Translations under genes and position numbers: made by a program
Assembly: GCA_044892505.1 (NCBI GenBank)
Contig: CM097883.1
Location: forward strand, 159,836,001-159,900,000
Reading direction: 5' to 3'
Length of the DNA stretch: 64,000 nucleotides
Source of the DNA: Schmidtea nova
Lineage: Eukaryota
Shown here: one piece after another, positions 27,444 to 46,786 of the stretch
Layout: each line of letters opens with the position of its first letter
Numbering within the stretch: the stretch's first letter is position 1
The notes under the pieces: model-generated
Database searches by the model: none
Told to the model about the DNA's origin: nothing
The model's input: only the letters and a program-made list of their open reading frames with translations

Positions 27444-27794
27444 CTATACATCCTCAGTTGAATCTGGCTCTGGATACACGTCTATCTCATTTACAATCCA
27501 GCTCGTCCAACTATCTGGTATCTCTTCCTCTTCATGTCTCGTTAATCTGTCAATTTCTTCTGCTTGCCAGTTGTTCACTTCATTCAATGTTCGGTTCTCG
27601 TTCTGTAATTCGTTTATCTGTAGTTGTTGAATCTCGATTTTGTTCATTGCTTCGAAATTACAGTTATAACTCTCGGTTAATAATTGCGTTTTTGCCGTCA
27701 ACTGGCTCTGTAATTCATTTACTGTTCTGGCTAGCAGGTCACATTGTACTTTCCATCTTGTCATCATCGACATCTCTGTGGTTCCTTGATTCAT
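27444..27794 (-). CDS. Cargo ORF, 116 aa, short coiled-coil protein
   Basis: Heptad pattern; acidic C-terminus YPEPDSTEDV resembling the end of the 386-aa ORF. Confidence 0.65.
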   Translation of the reverse strand: MNQGTTEMSMMTRWKVQCDLLARTVNELQSQLTAKTQLLTESYNCNFEAMNKIEIQQLQINELQNENRTLNEVNNWQAEEIDRLTRHEEEEIPDSWTSWIVNEIDVYPEPDSTEDV

Positions 27795-27916
27795 CGTTTT
27801 TCTAGATTATATACATCATTCTCTTTTTCTGTTTTTATGTTTTATAATATTTATACCCATACGTATACGGTTATGCATTGGTTTTTACACTATTATTTAC
27901 ACTCATATTCCACCCT

Positions 27917-30900
27917 CTATACAACTATTACTGGTTTTCCTTCGTACAGTTCCTCGTCCTCGATCTGTACCCACATCTCTTCGTGTTTTGATCGTCTTTT
28001 CAGCTCTTCTCGTACTTCTTTTGGTAGTTTTATGTTGTAATTCGTGACCTTTACGTCTGGCCATTTTACTGCTATGGTCTTATTTCTCATGCCATATCTC
28101 CAACATACTATCATGATCGTTATCAGCGGTATACACCCTATGAATACTCCCATGCTGATTAATCCCATTATTGTTTTCCCAATGCTCATCTTCGGAGTTT
28201 CACTTTGGTTTGTCATCACGCCATATTGACCTTTCCATTCTGCTTCCCATTGTTCATATTGTTGTTGTCTCTGTCTGACTTCTTCGATCACTTTCTCTGG
28301 TTCCCATCTTTCTTGTTGGTTTGGTAATTTTTCCTCCTTCTCGTTTTGTTCTCTCTTCTGACTAAATTCTCGGAATTCTAACTTTTTGATTCTCCTCTTT
28401 ATCGGCGTGTAATAGGTTTCGCACCTTTCTTGTGGATTTCCTTGTGCGTCCACTTCTTCGATTGCACACACTTCGTATTCTGCGTTTGTTTTCAACTTCC
28501 TCATTTCTACCTCGATTATTTCTCCTTTATCATTTGATGTCTTTTGACAGTTTCGTGGGGACTTTCCCATACTGTTTGGCATTAATGTCCAACAGATTTC
28601 TAGGACCTTTTTATGGATCTTCCATATTATCAACGTTGTTGATTCCGGTTCTTTTTCTATTGTCGTCCTTTCTGTTGTTACCTGTTGAACTCCTTGACTG
28701 TTGGCTGTCGTGGTTCTTCTTGACTTTCTTTTCCTCTGTCGACTTCTTCCCATTTCGATCGTTCTTGTTCCGTTAATTTGCTCTGGCGTCTTGTACAGTT
28801 TGCACTCCAGGCTTCTTTGTATTATTTCTCTTATTCTTCGGATTACGCAGATTTCATATGCTTGTCCGACTTCGAATCCATTTAGTTGAAACGGGATTCC
28901 TCGTTCTCTCGTTCTGCATTGCGGTATTACGTTGCTGGTCGGTACTCCGATGTATTTTCTCCAACACATCCCAATTGTTCTCCGACCAATGCTTTTTATC
29001 TCCACGGTTACTACTTCATTCGCAATCGTTTCTTGATCTTGTTTCTTTCTTTTTGGGAACTCAATGATCTCCTTTGCTTGGAACACTTTACACTCGCTTG
29101 TTCCTGGTCTGTTTCCGTTTGCTGCTTTTTCCATGAGACATAGTTCACATTTTTTATCTGTCTCTATTTCTGTTATTTCGATTTCTTCATTTGTCTCTGC
29201 TTCCCGACTTTCTCTTGTCTCGCTGATTCCAATTACTTCATTATTTCGTCCCCAACATCTTCCATTCGTTGTTCGTTGATCTTGGATGTTTACTAACGTC
29301 ATCACGCTGATATCTATGTCTTCCATGATTCTCTTAATGAGGATTAATATTAATGCTACACATATCAGTTCTGGTTGGAATGTTAATTTTCCCGCTGGAT
29401 TTTTGGTTATTCTTTCTTTCTCTGTTCGGTTTCTGATTCCTTCTTCTGCTTCCGATTGATTCTTCCCTTTCTCCGATTCCACTTCTGTTCTTCTCGTTGT
29501 CTCTTCACTTCTTTTCCCAATCCATTTCTGTATCTTCAGCGCTTCCGTTGCTTTGTATAATTGACAGGCAGTTACTTGAGGTGCTTTTGGTTCTCCTCTC
29601 TGCTTTACTGCGCATATTATGTATGACTTTTCTTTCTCCAACCCTTTGATTTGGATGACGTCTCGCTTCAAGTCTGACAATATACATTTCAGCGTATCGT
29701 TTTTCTTCAGGTTTTCTTTCCAGCATATTCTTTCGTATACTTCGTTTCCTCTGATTATTTCCAGCGTGACGTATTGTTTCTTGGCTTCGCCTTGTCCGAT
29801 GATCGTTATCAATATCGCAATACACAACATTTCCGGTCTCAAAAGTAGACTTCCTGCTCGTTTTCCATAGTTCGTACTTTCGTCTTTTGTTCCTCTGTTT
29901 TCTCGTTCTTCGGCTTCTTCCTTTTTGTCGTTTCTCGTTGGCTTCGGTTCTTCTTGTCTTTCTTTTTCATTATCCTCCGTTCTTTTGTTGTCATTGTCTT
30001 CGTTGTTCTTTTCGTTGTTACTTTTGTCGTCGAAATCTTTGTAACCACCCCCTGGTCCTTTCGAAATGTCGTCCTCGACATTAATTTCTTTAATCAATCT
30101 TTCATACGCTTGAACCGCGAGTGTGCTAGACTCGAATTCACGTATTTCCATATCCTTGGATGGTTCTATGTTTTCTAGTCCACTTTGCTTGATCGTTTCT
30201 TTGGCATTTGCCCATTCATTCACATATTTTCTGAACAAGTCTTTCCATCTTCCCGTTCGTTCCTGTTCTTTTGGGTTGTTCGTAAATTTCAAATCTCTTC
30301 TCTTCAAGAATTCTTCTACTATCTCTGGCTTTTTGTGTCTTAGTAACGCGCTTCTGATACACCAATTCTGATTCTGTTCCATATGGTCATTGATCTTGAA
30401 CACTGGTTCCTTGGTGATCGGATTCACCCATGTTAGTAATGCTCTCGTTTTCTCTATGTCGTGTATCATTACCGTCAGACTGAAATTCTTTACGTTATTC
30501 GCCAGATATTCGATATCATCTTGTTTCTTGATGGACTTTATGAACTTGATCATCTCGAAGTTGTTCCACTGTATTGCGATATCTATGATGGAATTATTCT
30601 TTCCATTTTTCTCTTCGATTTTTGCTCCTGCTTCGTATAACTCGTTTAGCACTTTCAACTTCGTCTTCTTCCTTGCTGCGATTATCATGATTGTATCTCC
30701 ATTATCATCAACCGTATTCATGTCTGCTTCGCACTTGACCATCGCTTTCGTTATTTCTAGCGCTTCGTTTTCTTTCTTTCGACGTAATGCCCAGTGTATC
30801 GGCAATCTCCCATCCTTTGATAATAGGAATGTTACTGGCATTTGATTTTTGATCGTTTCTATGTCACTCTCGTTATAATCTCCTTGTGCGTATCTGTGCA

Positions 30901-33900
30901 CTTTCTCTGTAATTGCTCCTAGTATCTCCAACGAGTTTTTATTCTCCTTGAATTCTGATAGTCTTTCCTGCGTTTTTGCTACGATTGCGTCTAGTCTCTC
31001 TTGATTATCAGCTTTTGCATTGAACAACACTGCTTTGCTTCTTATTCGCGTTTGCATCTGTTTCATTCGTTGGTCTTGATACACTGCTTGTCTGAAGAAT
31101 TGTCCATACTTCAATGCTTCCATCAGCTCTTTATATCGCTTGCTTATTTCTTTGTGCTGCTTTTGGATGTCATAAAAATGTTCGAAGCTCATATCCGGAT
31201 TCCATTGCTTATCGCACCATTTCTTGATTAATCCGAATAATTCTTTCTTTCTGTCTTCCAACTTGTATTCTCTTGGGTTCTCGCTGACCCGTAGCGTATC
31301 TCTCGCTATTAACACTGCAAGTGTTTTTGGATCGTATGTTACTTCTAGTAGATGTTTCAGTAACGCATTTTCTCCCTTTGTGAATACTTCATTACAATCT
31401 ATGACCCACGAATCTCCTTCTGGTCTTTTCCACTTTAGCAATATCCTCCAGGTTTTACTGTTCTTTACCCCGATTGCTTGTTTCATGATCGATCCTCTAG
31501 TTAGTTCATCGATTTCCCACGTGGCATTTTCCGTAATATACTTCAGTATTCGGTGATTCGCTCTATCAATTGCATGATTCAGGAACGTTCGTCCTTCTTT
31601 ATCTTTTGCCATCCAACTCGATCTGGTGTTTCCGAATAGCTCGACTATTTCCTCATCTCTTCCATGAATCGTCATCATCATAAGTGGAGTGATTCCTTCC
31701 CAATTCACTTTGTCAATTTCTCCTCCACCTTCGAGTATCATCTCTACGATCTCTTTCACTTTTTCGTTCCCACTGTGCTTGATTGCATTGTGCAACGCGG
31801 TGTTACCGTCTTTGTCTTGTAGATTCAATGTTTGAGGGATTTCCTCTAGCAGCGTTCTTGTTATTGGATGTGCTGTTCTATCCTTCGCATAATCCATTAC
31901 ATTCTTTCGAACTTCTGACAGTATATTGAAATCGTGCCACCATTTCCATTCTGGTATGATTTCTCTGGTCCTCTTTGCCAGTTCTTTGATGTTTATTGCT
32001 TCTCTTCGGTTGTCTTCTAGACTTGTTTGCAGCTTTTGTTGTACTCGCAACATATTAATTCTCGCCGTCTGTGATCTTGTCATCACCCTTTTCTCTGGTG
32101 ATAGAGTTGCTGTCTTTGGTATTTTTCTGCATCGACATGCATTCACGTATATTGGTCTTACCAATGGATTGTTCACCAATCGTACTCGCACATTGTTTTC
32201 GTTTACGGTTGTTATTTCGTATGGCCCTTTGCCTGGTCGTTGGAGTTTCTTGACCGTACCGGGTATTATCTCTGGTGTCTCGATTATCACCCAATCTCCA
32301 ACTTTTAAATCATGTGCTTTCACATTCTTTTTCTGATCATGTAGATCCTTATAACTCTCTTGATAGAACTTGATGTTTAGTTCCGCCGTTTTCCAGATTT
32401 CTTGCATTCTTTCTTTGAACTTTGTAACGTAATCGTCAACCTCCATGTATTGTGATAATGGTGGTTGGTATTCTAAATCGATCGGTAAGTTGCAATCTCT
32501 TCCGTACATCAGTTGAAATGGACTTAGCTTTGTTGCCGCATGTATTGACATTCTATATGCCATTAAACACAAGTTGATGTATTCGTCCCAGTCAGTCTGA
32601 TGTTTGCTGACGTAATTCGACAACATGCGTATCAATGTTCCATTGAACCTTTCTGTTTGACCGTTCGTTTGTGGATGGTATGGGGATGTTCGTAATTTCG
32701 CAATTCGGAAGTAATTCGTGACTTCGTCTAATATCTCACTCATGAAATTTGTTCCTTGATCCGTTAGGATTTTCTTTGGTGTTCCGTATCTGCAGCATGT
32801 CTCTTCCACCAATATTCTCGCGACTGTTTTCGCTTTTTGATCTGGTATTGCGAATGCTTCTGGGAACTTTGTTAGATAGTCCGTGACTACTAAGATATAT
32901 TGATTCCCCTTTAAACTTTCTGGCAGTGGCCCAACTACATCCATGGCTATCGTCGCCATTGGTTCTGCAGATATTGGCATTGGTTTTAGTGGTGTTTTCC
33001 ACTTCGTTCCGACGTTCTTTCTTGTTGCACAGGTTAAGCAGTTCCTTATCCATTCTTTCACATCATCTTCCATGGTTGGCCAAAAATACTTTTGTCTCAA
33101 TCTCCCGATTGTCTTTTTCGCTGACATATGTCCGCCTAATTTTCCGTCATGATATTGAGTCATGATTTCCTTTCGCCTATTCGCAGGTAAGCACATTAAT
33201 CTCCGTTCTCCATCTTGTATCAATAACCATCCTTTTTCCATCACGTATCTATGTTGGTATTTTTGCATATGTTCGCGCAACGTTTGGTTCTTGCCGAATA
33301 TTTCTATTTCCCTTTCTTTCAGATACTTGCTGATCAATCCCAACTCCTCATCTTCGAGTTGATCCTTCCTTAATTCGCTGAAATCCAGATCTTCCGCTAT
33401 TAGTGCACATATTTTTAGAGCATTCAGGTTCACCAACTCCGGAAATGTAAACCTTGACATGCAATCTGCGTTTGCATTTGCTTTTCCTGCTTTAAACTTT
33501 ATGAATGGCGAGTATTCTTGCAACTGCATTGCCCAACGCATCAATCTACTTGATGATTCTTTATGTTGACCTAACCATACTAGCGGTTGATGATCCGTCG
33601 TGATATATATTTCATGACCCCACAGTAGGTACTTGAAATGCTTGATTGCCAATATTATCGCATAGGCTTCTCTTTCTGTGACTGAGTAATTCCTTTCATG
33701 TTTTCTGAACGTTCGACTATAATATCCGATTACTCTCTCTTTGCCTTCTTCATCAAATTGGCCTAGTACTGCTCCTGCTGCATATCCACTTGCATCTGTT
33801 GCCAACAAAAATGGCTTCTTAAAATCTGGATGGACCAGTATTGGTGCTGTAATCAGCTTATCTCGTAATGTTTCAAATGCTGCTTGCTGTTCTATTCCCC

Positions 33901-36900
33901 ATATAAACGACACATCTTGTCTTACCAATTCTTGCATTGGCTTTGATATTCCTGCATAGTCCTTGATGAATTTTCGATAATATCCACACAATCCCAAAAA
34001 TTCTTGTATTTGAGTTACTGTCTTGGGTGGTGGACATTCTTTAACTTTCTCGATATTTCTTGGATCTGGTTCTTTTCCTTTTGCTGATACAATGTGACCT
34101 AAGAATGTCACTTTCTCTTTTGCCCAATCGCACTTTGACGGCTTCAATTTCAGCTTCCATTGCCTTAATTTCACGAACACATTTCTGATGTCTTGCAAGT
34201 GATCCTCGAATGTTGCGGAGTAGATCAATAGATCGTCGATGTACACCATGCATTGTTTTATGCCATGTGTTACGAAATTCATGCATCTCTGGAATGATGC
34301 TGGCGCGTTTGTTAACCCAAACGGCATTTTCTTGAATTGGTACAGATCTCGTCCGATTGTAAATGCTGTCTTCTCTTTATCCTCGTCTTTCATTTTGATC
34401 TGCCAATATCCGCTTTTTAAATCTAGTGACGTGAAATAAGCTGCTCCTTGTAACGTCAACAACATTTCGTTTATGTCTGGCAGTGGGTACGTATCTCTTT
34501 TCGTAACTGCGTTCAATCGTCTGTAATCGATACAGAATCTCTGAGTTCCATCCTTCTTTTTCACCATCACCACTGGGAATTGCCAGGGTGAGCAACTAGG
34601 TTCGATGACCTCTGCATCTAACATCTTTTGTACCTCTTCTTCTGCCACTGCTTTTTGAGCTTCTGCCAATTTGTATGGTCGTAATGCTATTGGCGTTTCG
34701 TCCGTCAACGGTATCGTGTGTAATGTTACATCACAGGTTCCCAGATCTAAATCTGATGCTGCGAATATATCTTTATATTCCATCAACAGTTTCTGTAACT
34801 GTTCTTTTTGTCGTTCGTCCAACAACACACTGTCGATTTTCCATGGTAATTCGCCTTTGCTTTTCTCATTCTTGTCTGGTATTTCGATTTCGGACATGGG
34901 TGTCAATTTACCCAATCTCTCATTCTCGTATATTATCTTGTCCTCTTCGTCGAAATTTACCAGATTGATCGGTATTTCTCCTTCTTGATTTATCGTAACC
35001 AATTCTCTTGCCATTGGTAATTCTTTCTTTGCTTCGAACTTTTTACTTGGTTCGAATATCATATCTCCTTTGATTGTTGAATCGATCTTGACATAGCACA
35101 TCATTTCGTGTCTCGCTGGCACTACTATTTGTTCCGCACTTGCCACTTTAACTTTCATCCTGCAGATTTTTCCTGTTCTATCTTTTAGTTTCATTGCTCC
35201 TAGATCAATTACGATTTCCTTGAACAGGTCGGGCATCAGGTCAGTTCCAATAATACATGGTACACTCAGCGATGGTATTACAGCGATGTACGTGTCGATT
35301 TCTGCACCTCGATGCTTAATTTTTACAAACCATCTTCCGGCTACTTCTACTGTCTCTTGACTGCACGCGATTACATGTACGTTCGTCTTCTCAATTTCTC
35401 CTTGGTTTTTCTCGGGTATATAGTTAATGTCGATTGCCGAAATATTCGCGCCTGTATCGATCATTGCTTCAATTTCTCTTCCGTTTATTTCTACGGTTGT
35501 TGTTAAGATTGGTCCCATGTTTGTGGACATAACCGCTATCGTGTGCGTGTCTTCCAATGAGTCTACGCTTTTACCTCGTTTTACTTTGCATCCTTCTGGA
35601 ATTATCGGGTATATACTTGTCATCGGCATCATCTGCATCATATTCGGCTTTGCTTTATATATAGGTTCGTTATACATTGACTGAGGTGGAGCGCTGTATC
35701 TCCAATTCTCAACTGTACTCTTTTCGTTGTATTGTGGAATCTGGTTTATATTCGCTTGTCCTCCTCGATCGTCATCATCATCGTCATCATTACTTGAATC
35801 ATCTTGTGTTCGATATCCTCTCACTCTTTCCCATAATCCTTTCCTTTCCTTCTTCAGTTGTCGTCTTGCTTGTTCATCTTGCATTATCTTTTTGAATTTT
35901 CTTCCGACATCTTCGTTAGTTCCTTTCATTTTTGCAAGTATCTTCAACAACCTCTTTATTCGATGTATGTCTTTCGAGTGTCCATGTAACACCATCGTTT
36001 TCGCAAGGAATGGTAAAAACCCTACTACCATTTTCCAATTCACTTTCTTTTCTCTCTTGTAGATATCGAAACACGCTAACATTTGCGTTATTATCACTCT
36101 GACGATTTGTATTATCAATATAACACCCAGTATTCCAGCCATCATTTGTCCAAATATCAGGAATCTTCCCCACATTGCCTTCATCATATTTTCTGTGGCC
36201 TTCTTGAAATGTGCCGGTGACAACAACAGTTCGTAATTCGGTCCTTCTCGATAATTCGTTCCTCCCGTTATCGTTACGATATTTGACAGTAATGCTTCTC
36301 TTCTTGCCGGGAATAATATATTCTGTCTTGCTGCTTCCAGATCTTTTGGACTATAGATTCCGTTGTTTGAGACATCTACGTCACTGAACTGTCTATCCTT
36401 TGACAACTGCATTAGCTCAAATTCTCTTGGTGCTAATACTTCAGTTCTTCCTGGGAACATGACCCATTTGCCATCTGGCTTCTGATAAAGCGGTCCGTAC
36501 GCGTTACTACAGTTGAATGGATTTGGTTCAAAACCTGGTGGATTGATGATTCTCGTCACCGGTTGAACGTATCGTACTTTTCCTTTGTAATCGATTTCTA
36601 GTTCGTTTGTACATTGTCCAGGTTTCAACTGCGTTGTTGCTGCTAGCGATGCGTGTGTCTTTTCGCAAATGTATACATACATTGCTTCTCCGACCACTCT
36701 TCCGAAATGTCCTTCTCTCAGTGGTAATAACGGCATCGCGCTATCTGGATTCGTAATCGCTACGGCCAACTTTGTCTTCAATATTTCTCGATTCAGTATA
36801 CAATCGTTATTTATCAGATCATAGTACACTTTTTGCAATGAGGCTTGACCTCTATGGAATAAGAAATCCATTTTATTATTCACATACAAGTGTAGCTTGA

Positions 36901-39900
36901 TATCCATTGTGTCGATCTTGGGTTTCGCATTCGGCACTTCTTGTTTCGACACGTATATTCCTGGATAGTTTGTTTCGTATACTGTTGTACTGCACTTAAG
37001 GGTTGCTTTCCCTTTTATGAATCTCATGCCTACATCCTGATTTGTGGTTATCAACACTGTTGGTGTGGTTCTCATCTCTATTCGTTTTTCTCTATGATCT
37101 GGTTTCAATTGTCTTTTATTCTCTAAAGCCTCTTTGAGATGTTTTGCTCTAGCTTTGTCATCATCGTCTTCTTCTTGGAAGGTTTTTCCTTGAATTTCGT
37201 CGAACTTTGCTCCTTGTAGCAGTTGTAATTGACATTCGTTCACTTTTGGTTTATACACCAAAGTTGACATTCCCGTTTGACACATGCTTCTGTCAATTTT
37301 ACACATGGATAACGTTTTCATTTCTCCTGTTGTTGGTTCGAAGAATGCTTCGTAGCTTTTCAGTTCGACTATATACGTATCCATTACCACTAAGTTGGTT
37401 GCAGGTGCTCCAAATATCGGATAGGTTTCTCCTTGACAATATCCTTCTCCTCCCGTAATCCGTCCTGCTACATAATACGTCTGCTGCAACATCATTCCTG
37501 GCTTTCCTTTTATCTTGATTTTGTCTCTCGTTGTCACTTCTCCATGTTTGAATAATGCTTCACAGTCTTCTCCTTGTAACACGATTGGTTCTCTTTCGGT
37601 TCCTGGCATGACAATTGCTGAATAATGTCCTCTACCACAATAGAATGCGAATCTCGTCTTTTGCACTTTGCATTCATTCACCATTGTCTTTATTAGTTCT
37701 GCCTCTTGATATACGTGGTACCATTGTTCTTTTTTGATCTCTTTCAATTCTACTGGAGTTGCATCTTTGCATTGCTCCGTACCTCTCAATGAGTACTTTT
37801 CTCCCAACTTCATTTGATCACAGTCAAATACTTCAAATGTTGTTACACCCTCTGTGCTTAACAACCATACTAACATCATCATGATTATCGAGTTTAAATT
37901 CAACGTCGATCTCCCGTTTCCTTGCATCGTTTGTCTATTCTCCATTTCTCTCAATACTCCTTCGAGTTTCTTTCTCATAACGTTAGACCCTTCTTTTGTC
38001 TGGTTCTCTTTTATGAACTTTTCCCATCCTCCTTTTCTGAGGATATATGGTTCAATTTCCTTCTCGATAATCATCGCCGTATTTTTAATATGTCTTCCCA
38101 TCGGACTTGACTTCGGGCTTCCTCGGCTTAGCGTTAACAAATTGTATATTGTATACGCGATTGCTACCAGATATTTGCTGTCCGTCTCTGCTCCGTTAAG
38201 TAGCCTTTTTATCAACATCGTGGTTCCTTGCCAATCTAGATGATTCGATTTTGTTTTTGCCTTTATCAATTCTGGCATAATCGGTGCTATTGCATTGTGT
38301 AGCATCCTTGCCTTTGTACTGGGTTCGTTTATTCGCCACAAATTCTTTAATTCCGGGTCAATTATTGCTAACACATCCATTATCGTTTTGGTGAGCCATT
38401 CTTCTCCTTGGCAGACTTGATTCTCTTCTTTTCCTCTGATTTCTGCGATTTTATCCAGTTTCTTCAAGCAAATCTCCCATTGCTCTTGTCTCCTTTCTTC
38501 CCTTGTCTTTGGGATTGTTGTTGCTGGATCTATCTTTGGTCTTCCTCTTGGTCGTTTCTCCATTCCCGTTCCGGTTTCTACAAATCTCGCTGCTCTTCCT
38601 GTTTCCTCTGTAACATCTCTTCCTTCGTTCGCTCGCTGTTCTAACCATCTTTCCATTTCTTGAGTAAACTGTGGTTGTTCTTGTTCGTCTTCCGAATCGT
38701 TTACCATTTCTATGACTACCTCCTGTTCCACTCCTTGATCGTCGATTTCTGCTGGTGACGTTATTGGCATCTCTACTATTCTGTCAAAAATGTTCGCCGT
38801 TGGTTTTTGAGTCAGTTTCGTTAATTCTTCTATCGCTTCGTCACTGTCTGTTAGTATCTCATCCACGTCATACGCTTCTGGCGGTGTTCTCTCTCTCGTT
38901 TTTATTGGTGTTGTCCTTGCTTGTCCCGAACTTGTTCCTGGGGTCATTGTTGACTTCATCGGACTTGGTGTACTCATGCTTCCTTTCGCTTTCTTTTCCT
39001 CTTTAAACTTCAGTGGTTGACCCACTATCTGTGCTACTGTTAACGTATTCATTAGATCCAATTGCACTGGTGTCAGCCAGATTTCCAAATTATTATCCAA
39101 CGATCGTCCTTGATGTTGCAGGTGGAATGGTAGTTCGTACATCAGTTTCTCTTTAACGCTTTTCACTTTTTCTGTTAGCATCACCCGAAACTCTTCTTTT
39201 CTTTGATTCGGATACATTATCCTCAAATGTATTTTCTGTGGCGTTTCTTCTGCAAACTCTTTGTTTCTCCACTTTTTTATTACATCGTCTAGTTGCTCTG
39301 GACACCACTCGTTAACTCTCTTGTATTCTGCTATCGCTTTAGCTACTTTTCTCAAGTTCGTTATGTCTTCTCCATTTGTGATTATGAATTGTGCTAAGCC
39401 TTTTATTGTTTGTCTCTTTCCCCGAGTATTTCCTCTCAATAGCTCGATCAATTCACTCGTTTTCTGTTTCTCCAATTCTGCCCATATTGCTGCAGTTTCT
39501 GGTCCGTCTAAGTCCGTTGGTAATAACCTCCTTGTTACCATACATATCCGTTTCGTATTCCGTTCGTGTCTGTCTTCTCCTTCCGGATCTTCTTCGTACA
39601 CGCCTCCTTTCACTTTCCAACATTTCTCTTTGTTATCCCATTGTTTCTCTACTGGCGTCAATCGTCGTCTGTTAAGATCCAATTCTCCCAAGATTGTCTC
39701 CCATTCTGGCTTCATCTGCCAGTTCCGATAGATTTCTACTATCTGCCTCAGCTTACGCATAACGTCCTCTTGTCGTTTCTTTTTCCTTTCCTCATCTCTT
39801 GGTGTTGCTCTTTGCACATCATCCATTCTGATGACATGTATTGTCTGATAATTATCCCATATGCCGATTTTATACGCTCGTCTTTCATCACGTTCATTCA

Positions 39901-42208
39901 GTAGATGTTCTTTGTATTTTATCGCTATGTCATCCTCAAATTCGTCTTCCCGTTCTCGTTGTAGTATCGTCTCATTGATGACCTCTACTATTTCTCCCAC
40001 TTTACTATCTGGTATTACCTCAATTTGTCTTGTCTCTTCGTTTGGTAATCTCACGGTAATATTCAGATCTGATACCTCTCCTCGTTTAAACATTTCTTTT
40101 CCCATCTTGGCAATTAGCTTGTCCGTCTTGAAATTTGAATGTCTCGTTTGACTTGTATCTCGTATGTTCTCGATACACTGTTTCAAATTCTCATACTCGC
40201 TTTTCGTCAATTCCTTTCGATGTTTCTTGATTTGTTGGATGATCTGTTCTATCATCGTATTCAAATTCTCCGCCAAGATTCTTTCCTTTGCCTCTAGCAA
40301 CTGAGGTTTTATTCTCATCTCATAACACATATTCGCTTCTTTGACGATCCCTTGCAAGTTCTCTTCCTTTTTGGTGTTGCATATAGATAACGTCGTTATT
40401 TCTCCTGGCCATATGCCTGTGTCTATCATATGCGTTCCTTTTCTCACCAATCCGTTTTCCGAATATATGAATTTGTCTTTGTACGAGCTTCCCAATCTGT
40501 CTTCAACCCATCGGTAAATTCCATCCGTCATTGGGTTCCTTATCCAGATTCTCGGTGAACACTCGTTTATCCATATCTGTATTATGTATTCGTTGAGTGG
40601 TTCTTTCAATAACCTCTCTATGAACTCTTGTATTACTCTCACTTCTCTTTCTTGTAACCACTTTTTATACTTCATCTGCCATACTGCTCGTATAAACTTT
40701 CGATATCGTTTCGTGTCGATAAACTCCTCGTTATGGATCACTTCCAACGCGTTATCCATCAGCTTCTGAATTTCGTCTTCCGTTACTGACAATGTTTCTA
40801 TTGTCTCGACTACTTCCATCTTTTTGTCCTCGTTTTCTGGTTCCTTTAGCATGTCTCCTGCCAGACTGCTAACTTCACTGTCGTCTTCTTCATCTGACAA
40901 CTCTTGTCTTGGGTGTCTCAGCATCCCAATATGCGCGATTGGTCTCGTTTCGTTTTTGCTGACTTCCTGGGTTAGTTCCTTCTCGTTTCCCATTATTTCG
41001 GCTTTTCCCATTCTTTTCTCCAACTCGTCTATTTCTTCCAACCGTCTTCGTCTTATTTTTCCTTTGAATATTCGACTGATCCGGGTTTGATGTTTCACTG
41101 GTGGTGGGATTTTCTCCGGTTCCACCTCTCTGATGATCATCACGTTTATTTTCGTCTCTGTTACTCCCATATCTTCCCATATATCAGTCATCTTTAACTT
41201 TACTTCTGGCAAATCCTCTGTTTGTAGGAATGCTTCTCTGGGCAGTTTCGTCACTCCCGGAATCATCTCATTTACTTTATTGAACAATCTTCCTACTTCT
41301 TCTTTTACATCGTATTTGAATCGAAATACGTGATCATTCGGCATGATCACCAACATTCCTCTTTGTTTGATTCTCACTCCCTCTTCTTGATTCGTTTCTC
41401 TTTCTGTTTCTGTTTCTTTTTCCACTTCTTCATCTTTTGGATTCCGCTCTGCGGTTTCTACTGCCTGCTTCACTTTTTCTTGTTTCTGCTCTTCGTTTCT
41501 TTTCTCTTTAACTTCTAACTCGTCTGACTCATCCTGCTGCTTCTCTTCCATCATCGCTCGCATCATGTTGATCCTTGGATTTCCCTTTTTTAACTGTTGT
41601 AATCGTTGTTGCCTGACTTGTTCTTCTTCTCGTCGTACTCTAGCCCATTCTTGATTATGTTTCTGTTGGCTCTCCCTATTTTCTCTTTCAGCCTCAGCTT
41701 CTATTAGCTGGATCATGTTTATCTTTGGTTGAGCCGCTTGCTGGCTTCCCTTTGCCATGCTTTCGATTATCTCGTGTAATCTGGATACCTCCTGTCTCAA
41801 CTTGGCTTCTTTCATACTGGCTTCATTTGCACTGCTGTTTGGGTTATTCCGTTGTTGACCCTGATTCCCATAGCTTGGTCGATTCTCGTAATTCGGTCTA
41901 TTTCCACTGTTTGACCAACTTCTCTGTTGATTACAGTCTCTTGACATGTGTCCGGTTTTTCCACATGTGTAACACGTTTTCCCATAACATCGATTTTCTG
42001 AGTGACCCTTTTGTCCACACAGTTTACAGGCTACGTTCTGAAAACACTCTTGTTGCCAATGTCCGTTTTTCCCACACGTCTGACATTGCCTATTCTGCCT
42101 GTCATTGTAACTATTTCCTCCATTCGGGTTCACCGTGATATATCCGTTGTTTTTCGTCGCTGGCGGTTCTTTGAACAATCTCTGCGAATGGGGAATACTT
42201 TGATTCAT
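27917..42208 (-). CDS. pol: 4763-aa polyprotein (NC, Ubl, Bcl-2-like, Env, PR, RT, RNase H, IN, ankyrin, FN3-like, TM)
   Basis: Single uninterrupted ORF; motifs are listed in the sub-features. Confidence 0.97.
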   Translation of the reverse strand: MNQSIPHSQRLFKEPPATKNNGYITVNPNGGNSYNDRQNRQCQTCGKNGHWQQECFQNVACKLCGQKGHSENRCYGKTCYTCGKTGHMSRDCNQQRSWSNSGNRPNYENRPSYGNQGQQRNNPNSSANEASMKEAKLRQEVSRLHEIIESMAKGSQQAAQPKINMIQLIEAEAERENRESQQKHNQEWARVRREEEQVRQQRLQQLKKGNPRINMMRAMMEEKQQDESDELEVKEKRNEEQKQEKVKQAVETAERNPKDEEVEKETETERETNQEEGVRIKQRGMLVIMPNDHVFRFKYDVKEEVGRLFNKVNEMIPGVTKLPREAFLQTEDLPEVKLKMTDIWEDMGVTETKINVMIIREVEPEKIPPPVKHQTRISRIFKGKIRRRRLEEIDELEKRMGKAEIMGNEKELTQEVSKNETRPIAHIGMLRHPRQELSDEEDDSEVSSLAGDMLKEPENEDKKMEVVETIETLSVTEDEIQKLMDNALEVIHNEEFIDTKRYRKFIRAVWQMKYKKWLQEREVRVIQEFIERLLKEPLNEYIIQIWINECSPRIWIRNPMTDGIYRWVEDRLGSSYKDKFIYSENGLVRKGTHMIDTGIWPGEITTLSICNTKKEENLQGIVKEANMCYEMRIKPQLLEAKERILAENLNTMIEQIIQQIKKHRKELTKSEYENLKQCIENIRDTSQTRHSNFKTDKLIAKMGKEMFKRGEVSDLNITVRLPNEETRQIEVIPDSKVGEIVEVINETILQREREDEFEDDIAIKYKEHLLNERDERRAYKIGIWDNYQTIHVIRMDDVQRATPRDEERKKKRQEDVMRKLRQIVEIYRNWQMKPEWETILGELDLNRRRLTPVEKQWDNKEKCWKVKGGVYEEDPEGEDRHERNTKRICMVTRRLLPTDLDGPETAAIWAELEKQKTSELIELLRGNTRGKRQTIKGLAQFIITNGEDITNLRKVAKAIAEYKRVNEWCPEQLDDVIKKWRNKEFAEETPQKIHLRIMYPNQRKEEFRVMLTEKVKSVKEKLMYELPFHLQHQGRSLDNNLEIWLTPVQLDLMNTLTVAQIVGQPLKFKEEKKAKGSMSTPSPMKSTMTPGTSSGQARTTPIKTRERTPPEAYDVDEILTDSDEAIEELTKLTQKPTANIFDRIVEMPITSPAEIDDQGVEQEVVIEMVNDSEDEQEQPQFTQEMERWLEQRANEGRDVTEETGRAARFVETGTGMEKRPRGRPKIDPATTIPKTREERRQEQWEICLKKLDKIAEIRGKEENQVCQGEEWLTKTIMDVLAIIDPELKNLWRINEPSTKARMLHNAIAPIMPELIKAKTKSNHLDWQGTTMLIKRLLNGAETDSKYLVAIAYTIYNLLTLSRGSPKSSPMGRHIKNTAMIIEKEIEPYILRKGGWEKFIKENQTKEGSNVMRKKLEGVLREMENRQTMQGNGRSTLNLNSIIMMMLVWLLSTEGVTTFEVFDCDQMKLGEKYSLRGTEQCKDATPVELKEIKKEQWYHVYQEAELIKTMVNECKVQKTRFAFYCGRGHYSAIVMPGTEREPIVLQGEDCEALFKHGEVTTRDKIKIKGKPGMMLQQTYYVAGRITGGEGYCQGETYPIFGAPATNLVVMDTYIVELKSYEAFFEPTTGEMKTLSMCKIDRSMCQTGMSTLVYKPKVNECQLQLLQGAKFDEIQGKTFQEEDDDDKARAKHLKEALENKRQLKPDHREKRIEMRTTPTVLITTNQDVGMRFIKGKATLKCSTTVYETNYPGIYVSKQEVPNAKPKIDTMDIKLHLYVNNKMDFLFHRGQASLQKVYYDLINNDCILNREILKTKLAVAITNPDSAMPLLPLREGHFGRVVGEAMYVYICEKTHASLAATTQLKPGQCTNELEIDYKGKVRYVQPVTRIINPPGFEPNPFNCSNAYGPLYQKPDGKWVMFPGRTEVLAPREFELMQLSKDRQFSDVDVSNNGIYSPKDLEAARQNILFPARREALLSNIVTITGGTNYREGPNYELLLSPAHFKKATENMMKAMWGRFLIFGQMMAGILGVILIIQIVRVIITQMLACFDIYKREKKVNWKMVVGFLPFLAKTMVLHGHSKDIHRIKRLLKILAKMKGTNEDVGRKFKKIMQDEQARRQLKKERKGLWERVRGYRTQDDSSNDDDDDDDRGGQANINQIPQYNEKSTVENWRYSAPPQSMYNEPIYKAKPNMMQMMPMTSIYPIIPEGCKVKRGKSVDSLEDTHTIAVMSTNMGPILTTTVEINGREIEAMIDTGANISAIDINYIPEKNQGEIEKTNVHVIACSQETVEVAGRWFVKIKHRGAEIDTYIAVIPSLSVPCIIGTDLMPDLFKEIVIDLGAMKLKDRTGKICRMKVKVASAEQIVVPARHEMMCYVKIDSTIKGDMIFEPSKKFEAKKELPMARELVTINQEGEIPINLVNFDEEDKIIYENERLGKLTPMSEIEIPDKNEKSKGELPWKIDSVLLDERQKEQLQKLLMEYKDIFAASDLDLGTCDVTLHTIPLTDETPIALRPYKLAEAQKAVAEEEVQKMLDAEVIEPSCSPWQFPVVMVKKKDGTQRFCIDYRRLNAVTKRDTYPLPDINEMLLTLQGAAYFTSLDLKSGYWQIKMKDEDKEKTAFTIGRDLYQFKKMPFGLTNAPASFQRCMNFVTHGIKQCMVYIDDLLIYSATFEDHLQDIRNVFVKLRQWKLKLKPSKCDWAKEKVTFLGHIVSAKGKEPDPRNIEKVKECPPPKTVTQIQEFLGLCGYYRKFIKDYAGISKPMQELVRQDVSFIWGIEQQAAFETLRDKLITAPILVHPDFKKPFLLATDASGYAAGAVLGQFDEEGKERVIGYYSRTFRKHERNYSVTEREAYAIILAIKHFKYLLWGHEIYITTDHQPLVWLGQHKESSSRLMRWAMQLQEYSPFIKFKAGKANANADCMSRFTFPELVNLNALKICALIAEDLDFSELRKDQLEDEELGLISKYLKEREIEIFGKNQTLREHMQKYQHRYVMEKGWLLIQDGERRLMCLPANRRKEIMTQYHDGKLGGHMSAKKTIGRLRQKYFWPTMEDDVKEWIRNCLTCATRKNVGTKWKTPLKPMPISAEPMATIAMDVVGPLPESLKGNQYILVVTDYLTKFPEAFAIPDQKAKTVARILVEETCCRYGTPKKILTDQGTNFMSEILDEVTNYFRIAKLRTSPYHPQTNGQTERFNGTLIRMLSNYVSKHQTDWDEYINLCLMAYRMSIHAATKLSPFQLMYGRDCNLPIDLEYQPPLSQYMEVDDYVTKFKERMQEIWKTAELNIKFYQESYKDLHDQKKNVKAHDLKVGDWVIIETPEIIPGTVKKLQRPGKGPYEITTVNENNVRVRLVNNPLVRPIYVNACRCRKIPKTATLSPEKRVMTRSQTARINMLRVQQKLQTSLEDNRREAINIKELAKRTREIIPEWKWWHDFNILSEVRKNVMDYAKDRTAHPITRTLLEEIPQTLNLQDKDGNTALHNAIKHSGNEKVKEIVEMILEGGGEIDKVNWEGITPLMMMTIHGRDEEIVELFGNTRSSWMAKDKEGRTFLNHAIDRANHRILKYITENATWEIDELTRGSIMKQAIGVKNSKTWRILLKWKRPEGDSWVIDCNEVFTKGENALLKHLLEVTYDPKTLAVLIARDTLRVSENPREYKLEDRKKELFGLIKKWCDKQWNPDMSFEHFYDIQKQHKEISKRYKELMEALKYGQFFRQAVYQDQRMKQMQTRIRSKAVLFNAKADNQERLDAIVAKTQERLSEFKENKNSLEILGAITEKVHRYAQGDYNESDIETIKNQMPVTFLLSKDGRLPIHWALRRKKENEALEITKAMVKCEADMNTVDDNGDTIMIIAARKKTKLKVLNELYEAGAKIEEKNGKNNSIIDIAIQWNNFEMIKFIKSIKKQDDIEYLANNVKNFSLTVMIHDIEKTRALLTWVNPITKEPVFKINDHMEQNQNWCIRSALLRHKKPEIVEEFLKRRDLKFTNNPKEQERTGRWKDLFRKYVNEWANAKETIKQSGLENIEPSKDMEIREFESSTLAVQAYERLIKEINVEDDISKGPGGGYKDFDDKSNNEKNNEDNDNKRTEDNEKERQEEPKPTRNDKKEEAEERENRGTKDESTNYGKRAGSLLLRPEMLCIAILITIIGQGEAKKQYVTLEIIRGNEVYERICWKENLKKNDTLKCILSDLKRDVIQIKGLEKEKSYIICAVKQRGEPKAPQVTACQLYKATEALKIQKWIGKRSEETTRRTEVESEKGKNQSEAEEGIRNRTEKERITKNPAGKLTFQPELICVALILILIKRIMEDIDISVMTLVNIQDQRTTNGRCWGRNNEVIGISETRESREAETNEEIEITEIETDKKCELCLMEKAANGNRPGTSECKVFQAKEIIEFPKRKKQDQETIANEVVTVEIKSIGRRTIGMCWRKYIGVPTSNVIPQCRTRERGIPFQLNGFEVGQAYEICVIRRIREIIQRSLECKLYKTPEQINGTRTIEMGRSRQRKRKSRRTTTANSQGVQQVTTERTTIEKEPESTTLIIWKIHKKVLEICWTLMPNSMGKSPRNCQKTSNDKGEIIEVEMRKLKTNAEYEVCAIEEVDAQGNPQERCETYYTPIKRRIKKLEFREFSQKREQNEKEEKLPNQQERWEPEKVIEEVRQRQQQYEQWEAEWKGQYGVMTNQSETPKMSIGKTIMGLISMGVFIGCIPLITIMIVCWRYGMRNKTIAVKWPDVKVTNYNIKLPKEVREELKRRSKHEEMWVQIEDEELYEGKPVIVV
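28100..29850 (-). other. Polyprotein C-terminus: two signal-like hydrophobic segments, four FN3-like Cys repeats and a TM helix (approximate)
   Basis: Repeated pattern CW....C....(G/K)L....YE(I/V)C...C..Y.TP; duplicated AG(S/K)L..(R/Q)PE(M/L)(L/I)C(I/V)A(I/L) hydrophobic leaders; TM IMGLISMGVFIGCIPLITIMIVCW. Confidence 0.6.
30540..31830 (-). other. Two ankyrin-repeat clusters downstream of integrase (approximate)
   Basis: QDKDGNTALHNAI, NWEGITPLMM, KDKEGRTFLNHAI; SKDGRLPIHWAL, DDNGDTIMIIAA, NGKNNSIIDIAI. Confidence 0.88.
32150..33200 (-). other. Integrase domain (approximate)
   Basis: HDGKLGGH...CLTC, MDVVGPLP, LTDQGTNF, GQTERFNGTL, GPY motif. Confidence 0.96.
33470..34700 (-). other. Reverse transcriptase and RNase H domains (approximate)
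   Basis: LDLKSGYWQI, YIDD (34232-34243), ATDASG, EREAYAII, TDHQPL. Confidence 0.97.
35180..35515 (-). other. Aspartic protease domain (approximate)
   Basis: AMIDTGANISAI (DTG at 35450-35458), CIIGTDL. Confidence 0.95.
35980..37890 (-). other. env: Envelope glycoprotein domain, chuvirus/herpes gB-type (class III) (approximate)
   Basis: Internal signal IIMMMLVWLLSTEG, mature start FEVFDC..YSL..C, Cys-rich ectodomain with CILNREILKTKLAVA...GEAMYVYIC...CTNEL...YVQPVTRII, furin-type REKR (37082-37093), C-terminal TM. Confidence 0.8.
38000..38402 (-). other. Bcl-2-like domain (approximate)
   Basis: BH2-like YILRKGGWEKF (38015-38032 encodes GGWEKF); degenerate BH1-like LLNGAETDSKYLVAIAY; helical region of the expected size. 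Confidence 0.65.
41935..42087 (-). other. Nucleocapsid, three CCHC zinc knuckles
   Basis: CQTCGKNGHWQQEC, CKLCGQKGHSENRC, CYTCGKTGHMSRDC. Confidence 0.95.
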
Positions 42209-42244
42209 GTTTCTTTTTCCTTGTTCTTCATCTTCTGTCGTTTT

Positions 42245-42802
42245 TCACATTACCGCCGTAATTCTCATGTCGTTCATTGCCATATGCAATTCGAATAGGT
42301 TGGCTGCCTCCAACGCTTCATCTACCGTTTTACATCCTTTGCATCCCACTTGTGCTCTGATGTCAGGTCTCCTGAGACCTCGTACGAATAACGCTGTCAT
42401 CAATTCTTCGTCTACTGGGCTTCCTCTATTGAATGCCAGTTTCGCCAACTTTCTTAATTCACTTGCGTACACCGCATTTGACTCATTTCTCCTCTGTTTT
42501 CTTGCTGAGAACTCATCGAATGCTTCGTTCAACACTTTATTTATCCCAAACGTCTGTTGGAAGAACTCCTTGATTGCTTCCCACGTTCTGGGTGGATTAC
42601 TTCCCGATCTCTTCTCAATATACAGATCCAATGCGCTATCTTTCAAGTATAGCGGGATTCGATTCGCTAACGTTTCTGCACTCCATCCGCATATATCCAC
42701 GAATATGCCAAATTCCTTCAGGAACGTGTCCAATCTACTGGCGTCTCCATTAAATGGTTCGCCCTTGAATTTTTCTCTTAGATCCTCTCTGTGATCACTC
42801 AT
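42245..42802 (-). CDS. gag: Gag capsid domain of giant element, in frame with the polyprotein across one TGA
   Basis: Retrotrans_gag-like (PFNGD...TWEAIKEFF...RKQRRNESNAVYASELRKLA...LFVRGL). TGA at 42245-42247 is followed by 12 sense codons and then the polyprotein ATG. Confidence 0.88.
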   Translation of the reverse strand: MSDHREDLREKFKGEPFNGDASRLDTFLKEFGIFVDICGWSAETLANRIPLYLKDSALDLYIEKRSGSNPPRTWEAIKEFFQQTFGINKVLNEAFDEFSARKQRRNESNAVYASELRKLAKLAFNRGSPVDEELMTALFVRGLRRPDIRAQVGCKGCKTVDEALEAANLFELHMAMNDMRITAVM

Positions 42803-43678
42803 CCCGATTCCACTATCTTGGAATACTGTACTAGTTTTCTTTACTTCTAGTTCACCACTTGTTTCTGAATTCGACTCTTCTTCTTCGCTACTCTCTGTTT
42901 CGTTATCTCTTGATTCGCTTCTTGTTCTGTTTTCCCTGACTAGTTCACTGTCTATCGTCTCTACTTCGTTTTGTACTTCTAGATCTTCTGGGGTTTCTTC
43001 TTGATTCTCTTTATTACTCGAATTGTCGCTGATCTCTACTTGTTTGTTCTTTTGTTGCTTAGGCTTGTTACCTGTTCTTGTTCTTTTTGCTGCTTTTCTC
43101 TCTGCTTCCGTTAAGATTGGTATTATACCTGATCTTGTTTCTCGTCCCTCAATTTTGTCTATTCCTCAACTTCTTATATTCTCAATTGATTTTCTACTCC
43201 GCTTTTGTTTTGCTTCTTCTTTGCTTTGTTTCCTTTGATTGCTCTGACTGCTAGATTGCTTTGAATTGCTTGATTGATTTGTTTCCTTAAAACAAATAAT
43301 CACTTACACGATACGTCCCCGTTATCGTGTTTCTCGTCCCTCTCACGGGTGTAGTCATAATTCATGAAGATCCCCATTTTTCCCATTTCCCTTGATTTTA
43401 AGTCTATTTAAATTATCTATGCAGTCGCATCAATTATCTATTCTTTATCAAATACACCAATTACTTTTCCCCAGTTCCCCAATTACTTTGTCGCTCAGCG
43501 CTCTTATTATCCCCTTTACTTTTCTCAGGCTTCTCTGGCTCTGAGTTCAAATCCCCCTTATCTGTCTACTACTCTATTTCCCAACTATTCGCTTTATCTC
43601 CTATTCGCACTACGTTTACTACTTCATTTCAATTCTCATCTCTACTCACCTTTACTTCAACTGACATCTCTCGTTGGC

Positions 43679-44141
43679 CTGCTGGGTTTTCCAGTCAGCG
43701 CTTTTAATCTCACCTTTTATCTCGAACTCTGTTTCTCTCAACTTCACTCATTATCTCATTAGCCTGCTGGGTTTTCCAGTCAGCGCTTTTAATCTCACCT
43801 TTTACTTCTGCTTCATTATTCTCGACCTCAATTGTCGTTTCATTAGCCTGCTGGGTTTTTCCAGTCAGCGCTCTTATTATCCACCCTTTATCTCTTCACT
43901 GTCGACTTTTAACTGCTCGTTACTCCGATGATCATCACTTTTGACCTGCTGGGTCTTCCAGTCAGCGTCCTCAATTTTACCACTTTATTATCGTTCACTT
44001 TTATTCTCTCGATCTTTCCTGATCGTTATCATTGACCTGCTGGGTTTTCCAGCTAGCGTCTTTACCACTTTACTGTCCTAACAAACCGGTTTCATTTTAT
44101 TCCCATCGAATCTCATGGTCTGCTGGGTTTTCCAGTCAGCA
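43679..44141 (-). repeat. Six spaced copies of a ~22-nt hairpin motif in the 5' leader
   Basis: Plus-strand CTGCTGGGTTTTCCAGTCAGCG starting at 43679, 43764, 43848, 43946, 44037 and 44120. Confidence 0.9.
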
Positions 44142-44468
44142 CCCTCCACTTACTCACTTTACTTTGCTACTCCTCCTTGTATGCATACTTTAACATCATT
44201 AGGCCACATAATCAGCTTTACTCGCATTTATCAATACCCAGGTGCGCACCTTCAACTCTCTCGTTATTAATTCGGTTTCTTTCAACCCTTATTCCTCATT
44301 ACTCGCTATTCATTTTCACTATTCATCATTTATCCTCATTATTATTTATTCATCTCCATTATCGCTTGTTGATCTTCACTATCCGGATAGTTTTATGCGT
44401 AATTTAGTCCTCATCTGCCTCACTTCGTCGTCTTTCTCGTGGGCTTTTACTCAATATTTTATTTCGAA

Positions 44469-44753
44469 CGAGAACTATGCTCACTGCTGAGAACTATGCT
44501 CACTAACGAGAACTATGCTCAATGACGAGAACTATGCTCAATGACGAGAACTATGCTCAATGACGAGAACTATGCTCACTAACGAGAACTATGCTCACTG
44601 ACGAGAACTATGCTCACTAACGAGAACTATGCTCACTGACGAGAACTATGCTCACTGACGAGAACTATGCTCACTGACGAGAACTATGCTCACTGACGAG
44701 AACTATGCTCACTGACGAGAACTATGCTCACTGACGAGAACTATGCTCACTGG
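44469..44753. repeat. 19-bp tandem array, 15 copies, with degenerate copies to ~45090
   Basis: CGAGAACTATGCTCA(C/A)T(G/A)A x15 (285 bp). Confidence 0.97.
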
Positions 44754-45786
44754 CAAAACATGGTTGTTATGAGGGTTTTGCTTACTGATGGAAACTCTTT
44801 GCTCCGGGGACTATGTTCCCCGATGAGAACTATGCTCACTGATGGTGACTACAGGAATTATGTTTCCTGATGAGAACTAAGCTCACTACAATGACTATGT
44901 TTATTAATGAGAACTACGCTCACTGATGAGGACTATGTTCGCTGGTCTTGTGTTTATTACTGAGAACTCTGCTCACTACGAGATTTATATTTCTGGACGA
45001 GAACTATGCTCACTATGACGAGACCTACGCTCACTAGGATGTTATGTTTTATGACGAGACCTATGCTCACTATGAGACCTGTGCTCACGAACGAAAACTC
45101 GAAATATCATCTCTCAGTGGTTGCATGTGTTGCTTCGGGATGTTCCTCCCAGTGGTCACTTATGCTTCTTCGGAGAATCTATTGTCGCGTTTCGTTAAGT
45201 TCTATCTTTCAAGAACTATGGGCAAATCCTTTCTCTTTAGGACCCCTTTTATCATTTCCTTTCTTTCAAGGATTTCATTTACCCTCGAGTTTTCCTTTAC
45301 TCGGTTCATCTATTATACCCCTTTATTCTGTTATCTATTCATCGACTTCTCTAGTTGATTTTACCTTATGCGAGCTGATTACGTGCCTTTCATCATATAC
45401 TCCGTTTTGCTATTCATCTTACTCATTTCATTGCTTTCTCTCTCTCTTACTGATCAGTTTATCATCCTATTTTTTATAGTTTTTTCTGCGCGCGCCTAAC
45501 CTCATTGAGTTGTCCCTACCTTTCACCCCAAGCAAAATATATAAAAAGATCGCATTGGTCCACTGATGCACGATGTGGTGATCAGTCACATCACAAGAGC
45601 TTTCCAATATCCGCGATTGGATCCCTTTCTACACATCTCGGGTGAGTTGATCAGTTGGTTCCCCCCAATGGGTGCTTATCGGACTACTCGTGAGTAGCTC
45701 ATTATTACTTAGGTCATTTTTACCAAATCCTTATTAAACCCTCATAATTTCAATAACAACTGCACTTGCTCAAAACTTTATTTCTA

Positions 45787-46245
45787 TTACAAGTACACTG
45801 CTATTTTCTCGGATACGGGAAGGTTGCACATAGGACATCGTTCGTTTATTTTACAGTCATTACAGAATCGGAAATGCCCACATGGCAACAACATTATCTG
45901 TATCTTATTCATTTCACAGATATGACACGTCAGATATTGTCTCGTATGTTCTGTTGTTATTCTTATCCACTCATCGTGTTTTGTTGTTAACTGTTGTTCT
46001 AGCCTGTGGCACTCGATATTCATCTCAGGGTTGTTTAATCTTTCTCTATACCACTGATATCGTGTTGCTGTATCCACTGTGTTCTTATTCTCACTTAAGC
46101 TCATCATCCTTTCGGCTCTTTCTGTGTTGTTTGTCGGTTCGTGATATTCTCCTACCTCGAGTCGTTTTAACTTTCTCGTTATTGTCTCCACTGTCTCGTT
46201 GTTTGTTTCGAAAAACGTTTGCATTTCTTTTATTTTGTTCTCCAT
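45787..46245 (-). CDS. Cargo ORF, 152 aa, C-terminal IAP/Mdm2-type RING finger
   Basis: CHIC...PCGH..CNDC....CPMC ending in hydrophobic IAVYL*, the terminal RING arrangement of IAP-type E3 ligases. No BIR seen. Confidence 0.85.
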   Translation of the reverse strand: MENKIKEMQTFFETNNETVETITRKLKRLEVGEYHEPTNNTERAERMMSLSENKNTVDTATRYQWYRERLNNPEMNIECHRLEQQLTTKHDEWIRITTEHTRQYLTCHICEMNKIQIMLLPCGHFRFCNDCKINERCPMCNLPVSEKIAVYL

Positions 46246-46780: not shown

Positions 46781-46786
46781 AATTTA

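Follow-up and report, generated by a model that had tools for sequence, protein, structure and literature searches.

What is an envelope glycoprotein doing inside the polyprotein of a retroelement, in frame between the Gag and protease parts, and is it a class III fusogen of the chuvirus and herpesvirus gB type, as an earlier note on this DNA proposed? The locus that raises these questions lies in Schmidtea nova (assembly GCA_044892505.1, contig CM097883.1, positions 159,836,001 to 159,900,000), and the whole stretch of 64,000 nucleotides that was analysed is called the window here. Within the window, the envelope (env) stretch is enclosed by a minus-strand Ty3/gypsy element of the Burro type, 29,382 bp long, whose features are collected in Table 1. 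Our answer, to which we attach a probability of about 0.75, is that this is the env of a recently active Burro-type element resembling an endogenous retrovirus (ERV), and that it serves as a polyprotein-derived, gB-like fusogen for moving between host cells.

The fusogen class is addressed by both sequence and structure. The Pfam family PF24664 (Monjiviricetes_fusion) matches env at 248.8 bits (E 1e-73, cut-off 27). An AlphaFold2 monomer model of the ectodomain, for which the ectodomain was aligned with 100 relatives out of the 150 listed, has a mean predicted local distance difference test (pLDDT) score of 88.1 and a predicted template-modelling (pTM) score of 0.69; it contains long strands, a 48-residue central helix and two turns (mature residues 68–72 and 129–132) that are flanked by long strands. 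When this model was compared with the PDB using Foldseek, all rows among the matches listed were herpesvirus gB (best E 1.3e-13), and in the viral library BFVD the best matches were chu-like and related glycoproteins (E 5e-37, TM score up to 0.72). VIA-align, which does not use Foldseek, placed the gB of herpes simplex virus (HSV) at the top with a moderate Z of 9.2 (root-mean-square deviation (rmsd) 7.0, 407 residues aligned), and its ten rows with Z of at least 5 comprise gB, rhabdovirus G and thogotovirus GP. A sequence profile of env reaches gB weakly (E 0.005), and a single-sequence search of solved structures with env gave no genuine match. Similarity was therefore found to HSV gB and to chuvirus-type G alike, and the gB-like fold that the earlier note had expected extends across the whole ectodomain.

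Because of the Foldseek, viral-library, VIA-align and sequence-profile matches, the Burro env is, as modelled, a class III (gB/chuvirus-type) protein and not an F-type one. The opposing view, that env is F-type (class I), can draw on an HHpred probability of 96.7% to the gypsy Env given in PMC6431247, but the gB rows from the PDB, the VIA-align rows and the direction of the sequence profile leave it with almost no credibility. The window env thus has both sequence family and fold in common with the chuvirus (Monjiviricetes) glycoprotein and herpesvirus gB, while differing from them in its setting: chuvirus G and herpes gB are stand-alone genes of ~650–900 aa with an N-terminal signal, whereas the window env is an internal part of a polyprotein.

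The long frame encodes, in order, zinc knuckles, ubiquitin-like repeats, a Bcl-2-like domain, env, protease, reverse transcriptase (RT), RNase H, integrase, ankyrin repeats and a second membrane protein. Its length is far from what composition alone would give: when this DNA was shuffled 200 times, no stop-free run exceeded 152 codons, as against 4,775 observed. The parts that the earlier note had listed (an internal signal peptide, FEVFDC, a Cys-rich ectodomain, REKR in a charged loop, a membrane helix and the DTG downstream) were all located in this one frame. Specifically, a signal-like hydrophobic stretch occupies residues 1446–1469, FEVFDC begins at residue 1470 (nt 37837), and the ectodomain (residues 1470–2030) has 14 cysteines, 11 of them at least 90% invariant among 101 aligned proteins; the predicted membrane helix follows at residues 2034–2052, the protease DTG at residue 2263 (nt 35458) and the RT motif YIDD at residue 2668. 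Scans for hydrophobicity recover both the signal and the single helix in relatives: a hydrophobic core and small residues stand ahead of the mature env start in all 18 relatives whose match covers that start, and relatives likewise show one such helix. Farther downstream in the same protein, 13 of these 18 carry the protease motif and 8 the RT motif. In a sister family with an env 81% identical to that of the window, the signal ends in A-T-A and is followed by the same FEVFDC.

Two of the claims about this arrangement stood only in part. By eye, the motifs GE..Y...C and P.TRI that had been quoted as typical of chuviral glycoproteins are present, but the start reads FDC instead of YDC, and C..ELP reads C..ELE. 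Likewise, env does lie in frame between Gag and the protease, in the window and in relatives, but not directly after Gag, from which it is separated by ~1,350 residues that include the two ubiquitin-like repeats and the Bcl-2-like domain. The env signal peptide lies ~30–40 residues after the Bcl-2-like domain (38003-37838, minus strand). In cellular Bcl-2 proteins, a tail anchor occupies the position after the Bcl-2 domain; by analogy, the signal peptide of env, once cut off, may also act as a tail anchor of the Bcl-2-like domain that precedes it.

It is informative to examine env in light of the copying history of the element. The insertion in the window is recent, because its long terminal repeats (LTRs) are nearly identical (7 mismatches and 1 gap, 99.75% identity) and it has TG...CA ends and a 4-bp duplication. 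Sixty genomic copies have 95–96% DNA identity to the window; 40 of these were chosen by env similarity and, for that reason, 20 were added that were chosen by integrase and are absent from the env match list. Near-full copies at least 88% identical to a C-terminal probe number at least about 125. Over 51 copies and the window (9 of the 60 loci were excluded for frameshifts or poor cover), env has a pairwise ratio of non-synonymous to synonymous change (pN/pS) of 0.026, as against 0.025 in RT-RNase H and 0.035 in integrase, and in the 20 integrase-chosen copies the shared env changes are 16 non-synonymous and 173 synonymous (ratio 0.024). The expectation of an intact env is borne out in that env is under strong purifying selection, equal to that on RT, and env is plainly maintained in replicating lineages. 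The coding domains upstream of the env signal are likewise under purifying selection.

The same layout recurs beyond the window family. The sister family has a 5,140-codon frame (L103, L105), two other genome families share the one-frame layout with frames near 3,400 codons and an env 37% identical (L061, L063, 1-9930), making at least three other env-bearing families in the genome; no ankyrins were seen in the two families with ~3,400-codon frames (L061, L063). These observations bear on whether env could be a chance-inserted chuvirus fragment or an assembly chimera. Chuvirus glycoprotein insertions are generally known to occur in invertebrate genomes, but all 69 scored env matches are 99–100% identical and in long frames, the layout is repeated in other families and datasets, and selection is strongly purifying, so that we regard such an accident as practically out of the question. 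No Pfam match to a chuvirus L polymerase or nucleoprotein was obtained in the element ORFs (open reading frames) scanned, and the neighbours of env are retroelement Gag and Pol. As a separate observation, in all 3 runs examined, of unspecified kind, the summed contig depth over 35655-37722 is ~2x as high as elsewhere in the element, a depth that is uninformative on expression or splicing; the assembly has no excess of env copies, the first-look candidates being 488 for env, 662 for RT and 455 for gag.

How such a polyprotein might work can be set out as a series of steps. A single frame of ~5,080 codons would be translated, with the Gag side remaining cytosolic. The internal signal peptide would direct the next 560 residues into the endoplasmic reticulum (ER), and signal peptidase would cut just before FEVFDC; the env helix would then stop transfer and bring the protease, RT, integrase and ankyrins back into the cytosol, where the element's own aspartic protease would trim the cytosolic parts. 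Env would form a gB-like trimer with no need of a furin cut, and particles would gain through it the ability to fuse membranes, allowing the element to move between host cells. Gag, env and Pol would be made 1:1:1, and because the Gag and Pol precursors would start out tied to the membrane, budding at internal membranes would be favoured.

It is also worth considering that the single frame might reflect genome layout only, with env made mostly from a spliced or subgenomic RNA, which is the textbook route in retroviruses and insect errantiviruses. We consider this quite unlikely, given that three genome families and distant relatives preserve an uninterrupted frame across env, and that the coding domains immediately ahead of the signal peptide are under purifying selection too. 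Somewhat less improbable, although still unlikely in our estimation, is that env is a real class III protein whose work is confined to the cell that makes it, where it would hold Gag and Pol at the ER and serve for budding into, and fusing out of, the ER or nuclear envelope, so that the element would not pass between cells. The 1:1:1 membrane-tethered layout suits internal assembly, the ectodomain is sparsely glycosylated, and the entry mechanism of gB-type elements is stated as not known in PMC13524379; yet constraint as tight as that on RT covers the whole ectodomain instead of the anchor alone, and the proteins nearest to it in structure are those with which enveloped viruses enter cells. 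Entry into other cells seems the likeliest purpose of env.

Several observations weigh against reading env as a fusogen for spread between cells. The global likeness to gB is moderate, in the Z score from VIA-align and in Foldseek alike (TM ~0.4, rmsd 12–14 Å), and the ectodomain has a single N-glycosylation sequon. We infer the cleavage sites and membrane topology from sequence, since the signal and topology calls rest on hydrophobicity scans. In the window copy, a stop codon at 42245-42247 parts the capsid from the zinc knuckles, although this stop is not general: of 69 genomic env matches that were scored, 21 have a continuous frame of 5,076–5,091 codons. Among the integrase-chosen copies, env is undamaged in 12 of 20, has a stop or frameshift in 6 and is mostly or wholly absent in 2. 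Furthermore, the selection of 40 of the 60 copies by env is a sampling bias, and because the copies are related, their counts are not independent events. Finally, purifying selection shows that env is needed, not necessarily that it is needed for entering another cell.

On the mode of priming, the present analysis departs from what had been proposed. The earlier note had furin release the fusogen at REKR (residue 1718, nt 37093), a motif that fits R-X-K/R-R and lies in a loop that is exposed and of low confidence in the model. However, REKR is found in none of the 12 near relatives with sequence in this loop and in 1 of 95 aligned rows, the sister family (81% identity) has QEKQ in its place, and the first arginine is altered in 6 of ~58 copies (3 among 40 and 3 among 20). 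In herpes gB the furin site lies just ahead of the central helix, whereas in the model REKR is ~65 residues ahead of it. Furin also disfavours isoleucine after its site, and an isoleucine directly follows REKR. Because the motif is unconserved and so far from the central helix, we reject furin priming, which now appears very improbable; among gB-type env proteins the furin site is, likewise, not always conserved (PMC13524379).

The arrangement itself, whose novelty had been implied, is already published. Arkhipova and Yushenova (2019, PMC6431247) described the in-frame gag-env-pol layout of planarian Burro elements, and Chary and Hayashi (eLife 2026, PMC13524379) described gB-type GAG-ENV-POL elements in flatworms, nematodes and bryozoans, including six from Schmidtea mediterranea; in the available text of PMC10175614 Burro is merely mentioned. 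Burro/GYPSM1, as presented in PMC6431247, has in common with the window element a length of ~30 kb, a frame near 5,000 codons, a Gag with three CCHC knuckles, ubiquitin-like and BCL2-like parts, an env in frame between BCL2 and the protease, ankyrin repeats, MATH/TRAF and accessory ORFs. Conversely, the Burro traits of size, multi-kb LTRs, protease-RT-RNase H-integrase order, Gag with CCHC knuckles, ankyrins and MATH/TRAF are all present in the window element. The two differ in that the MATH domain of the window lies in a separate, complete TRAF-like ORF downstream of the polyprotein, and in that a RING but no BIR was found in the window ORFs scanned; neither a BIR nor a dUTPase-like domain had a Pfam match among the element pieces and ORFs scanned. 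The available text of PMC6431247 ties the Burro env to gypsy Env and mononegavirus fusion proteins, leaves class III unnamed and is silent on any second membrane protein beyond the ankyrins.

The resemblance to the elements named Smed_errantivirus_1-6 in PMC13524379 is also close. These have in common with the window element a gB-type env, the GAG-ENV-POL order, an ectodomain between signal and helix, many near-identical copies and an unconserved furin site. By eye, the window env aligns with the domain I–II sequences of all six, best with numbers 5 and 6, and family L061 of the same genome reads almost like number 1, while the window family is visibly identical to none of them. These likenesses by themselves point to a planarian host, most likely a dugesiid. 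In the available text of PMC13524379 the terms polyprotein, in frame, ankyrin and fibronectin are absent, and that text therefore appears to hold no discussion of processing or of a C-terminal cassette. The non-canonical ERVs of nematodes (Sacco et al. 2022, as cited in PMC13524379) have the order env-pol, like the window.

The C-terminal cassette of the polyprotein (28094-29854, minus strand), which follows the ankyrins, adds a second candidate surface protein. Its repeats resemble fibronectin type III (FN3) domains: for a model of repeat 3 (pLDDT 80), the 50 rows listed by VIA-align are all of FN3 fold by title (best Z 6.9, rmsd 2.6, 70 residues aligned), Foldseek matches FN3 with an E of only 0.02, and the Atlas lead for the repeats is 0.85. 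These scores are middling, yet the lists are consistent and span the domain, which points to an FN3 fold for the modelled repeat. A signal and a terminal helix after integrase are found in 8 of 9 long relatives. The window repeats themselves were recovered in none of 7 C-terminal cassettes of other families by BLASTP, and in none of 9 above decoys by profile; one FN3-like motif occurs in 7 of 8 other cassettes, as a lead only, since the pattern was written after inspection. A weak search with the C-terminal 661 aa found no homologue among longer database proteins. Over 38 copies and the window, the repeats have a pN/pS of 0.19, which is purifying and looser than in env. Diversifying selection on the repeats had been suspected from their 88–97% protein identity between copies and was rejected, with a pN/pS of 0.08–0.30 per repeat. 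No earlier report of a C-terminal FN3 cassette or of planarian particles was found, although Grohme 2018, Jurka 2007, Sacco 2022 or the figures of PMC6431247 and PMC13524379 may describe it.

These features invite the speculation that the polyprotein releases two surface proteins, the gB-like fusogen and a type I FN3-repeat partner for attachment or triggering, by analogy with gD and gH-gL for herpes gB. We offer this tentatively and think it rather doubtful: the conserved signal and helix in the relatives, the FN3 fold and the purifying selection speak for it, while the failure of the repeat profile in all 9 relatives speaks against it, as does a hydrophobic duplicate between repeats 1 and 2 that blurs the topology. 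In another reading, the C-terminal protein would be a receptor decoy acting with the TRAF-like protein.

The remaining parts of the element are those of a large Ty3/gypsy retroelement with accessory genes. In Pol, the Pfam families RVP, RVT_1, RT_RNaseH, Integrase_H2C2 and rve match above cut-off, and a 100-aa block between protease and RT is conserved in 6 of 7 relatives. Several database relatives (P0004-P0010) carry two or three aspartic-protease motifs, located before and after a spacer upstream of RT and, in one further position, after integrase. A profile of four ubiquitin-like repeats reaches a redesigned ubiquitin (E 0.0017) and, more weakly, ubiquilins and ISG15; the repeats have no Pfam match and go undetected when the window sequence is searched alone. 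Similarly, a four-row profile of the Bcl-2-like domain reaches Bax (E 0.0017) and also Bcl-xL, where the window sequence alone yields no match, and Pfam Bcl-2 appears in two other families under its cut-off (E 1.6e-4 and 5.9e-4). The TRAF-like ORF, which lies 3′ of the polyprotein, matches TRAF-mep_MATH (E 2.8e-25) and MATH_2 (E 6.6e-27).

Other 3′ accessory ORFs at 24093-25881 and 27444-27806 (minus strand) comprise a coiled-coil protein of 396 aa, a second protein of 176 aa that has hydrophobic stretches both at its start and near its end, and an ORF of 120 aa; the two of these that were scanned had no convincing Pfam match. Each LTR holds two ORFs of 194 and 219 codons (21032-21616 and 21791-22450, with a copy at 47172-48591, minus strand), for which a Pfam scan was also without convincing match. 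In the leader region (43669-44160 and 44410-45025) there are a 19-bp tandem array and six 51-bp repeats spaced ~85–97 bp apart, possibly packaging or regulatory signals. Six bases inside the 5′ LTR is a stretch starting with TGG (46763-46780, minus strand), a candidate primer binding site in its likeness to that for tRNA-Pro. Outside the element, repeats with long ORFs flank it at 9257-13100, 50980-54104, 55068-57400 and 2000-3949, and a second pair of direct repeats (50980-51561 and 53523-54104) encloses an 844-codon frame.

Table 1. Features of the Burro-type element in window coordinates
Feature	Position	Strand	Basis
Burro-type Ty3/gypsy element, whole	20647..50028	-	TG...CA ends, 4-bp target-site duplication
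5′ LTR, 3,242 bp	46787..50028	-	99.75% identity to 3′ LTR
5′ accessory ORF with C3HC4 RING finger	45787..46263	-	Pfam zf-C3HC4_3 E 6.7e-9, above cut-off
Gag capsid-like part, in frame of the long ORF, one stop codon between	42245..43165	-	Pfam Retrotrans_gag E 9e-6
Long open frame, 4,775 codons	27917..42244	-	ORF list, motif reading, Pfam
Three CCHC zinc knuckles	41933..42085	-	Pfam and motif reading
Two ubiquitin-like repeats (39845-40087 and 39020-39244)	39020..40087	-	Weak evidence
Bcl-2-like domain	38003..38482	-	Weak evidence
Predicted internal signal peptide of env	37838..37909	-	Hydrophobic core; conserved in relatives
Class III (gB/chuvirus-type) fusogen ectodomain as modelled, 561 aa, 14 Cys	36155..37837	-	Pfam, AlphaFold2, Foldseek, VIA-align
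REKR in variable charged loop, probably non-functional furin site	37082..37093	-	Not conserved
Predicted env membrane helix	36089..36145	-	Top hydrophobic 19-mer of the frame, Kyte-Doolittle
Pol: aspartic protease, RT, RNase H, integrase, in Ty3/gypsy order	32195..35500	-	Pfam
Ankyrin repeats	30536..31837	-	Pfam Ank_2 E 6.4e-20
Second internal signal-like stretch	29783..29854	-	Hydrophobicity scan; duplicate at 29336-29392
Four FN3-like repeats, ~82 aa each	28400..29782	-	Repeat alignment, repeat 3 model
Predicted C-terminal membrane helix, then 58-residue tail	28094..28186	-	Hydrophobicity scan
3′ accessory ORF, complete TRAF-like protein (RING, zf-TRAF, coiled coil, MATH)	25941..27371	-	Pfam
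3′ LTR	20647..23887	-	LTR comparison

Given that the arrangement was already in print, this analysis has the value of a confirmation: it assigns the Burro env to class III by its modelled fold, finds it as constrained as RT in a family that has copied recently, and removes the furin idea. How any retroelement envelope of the gB type achieves entry is not known (PMC13524379), and the Burro env matters because of this and because planarians can be studied experimentally, so that expression, particles and spread from stem cell to stem cell could be followed in them. For the missing partner of the fusogen, the second membrane protein offers a concrete candidate. If the tentative two-protein reading were true, planarians would harbour an infectious, retrovirus-like agent equipped with Bcl-2-like, TRAF-like, RING and ankyrin modules and with a two-part entry machinery, built like the polyprotein of an RNA virus.

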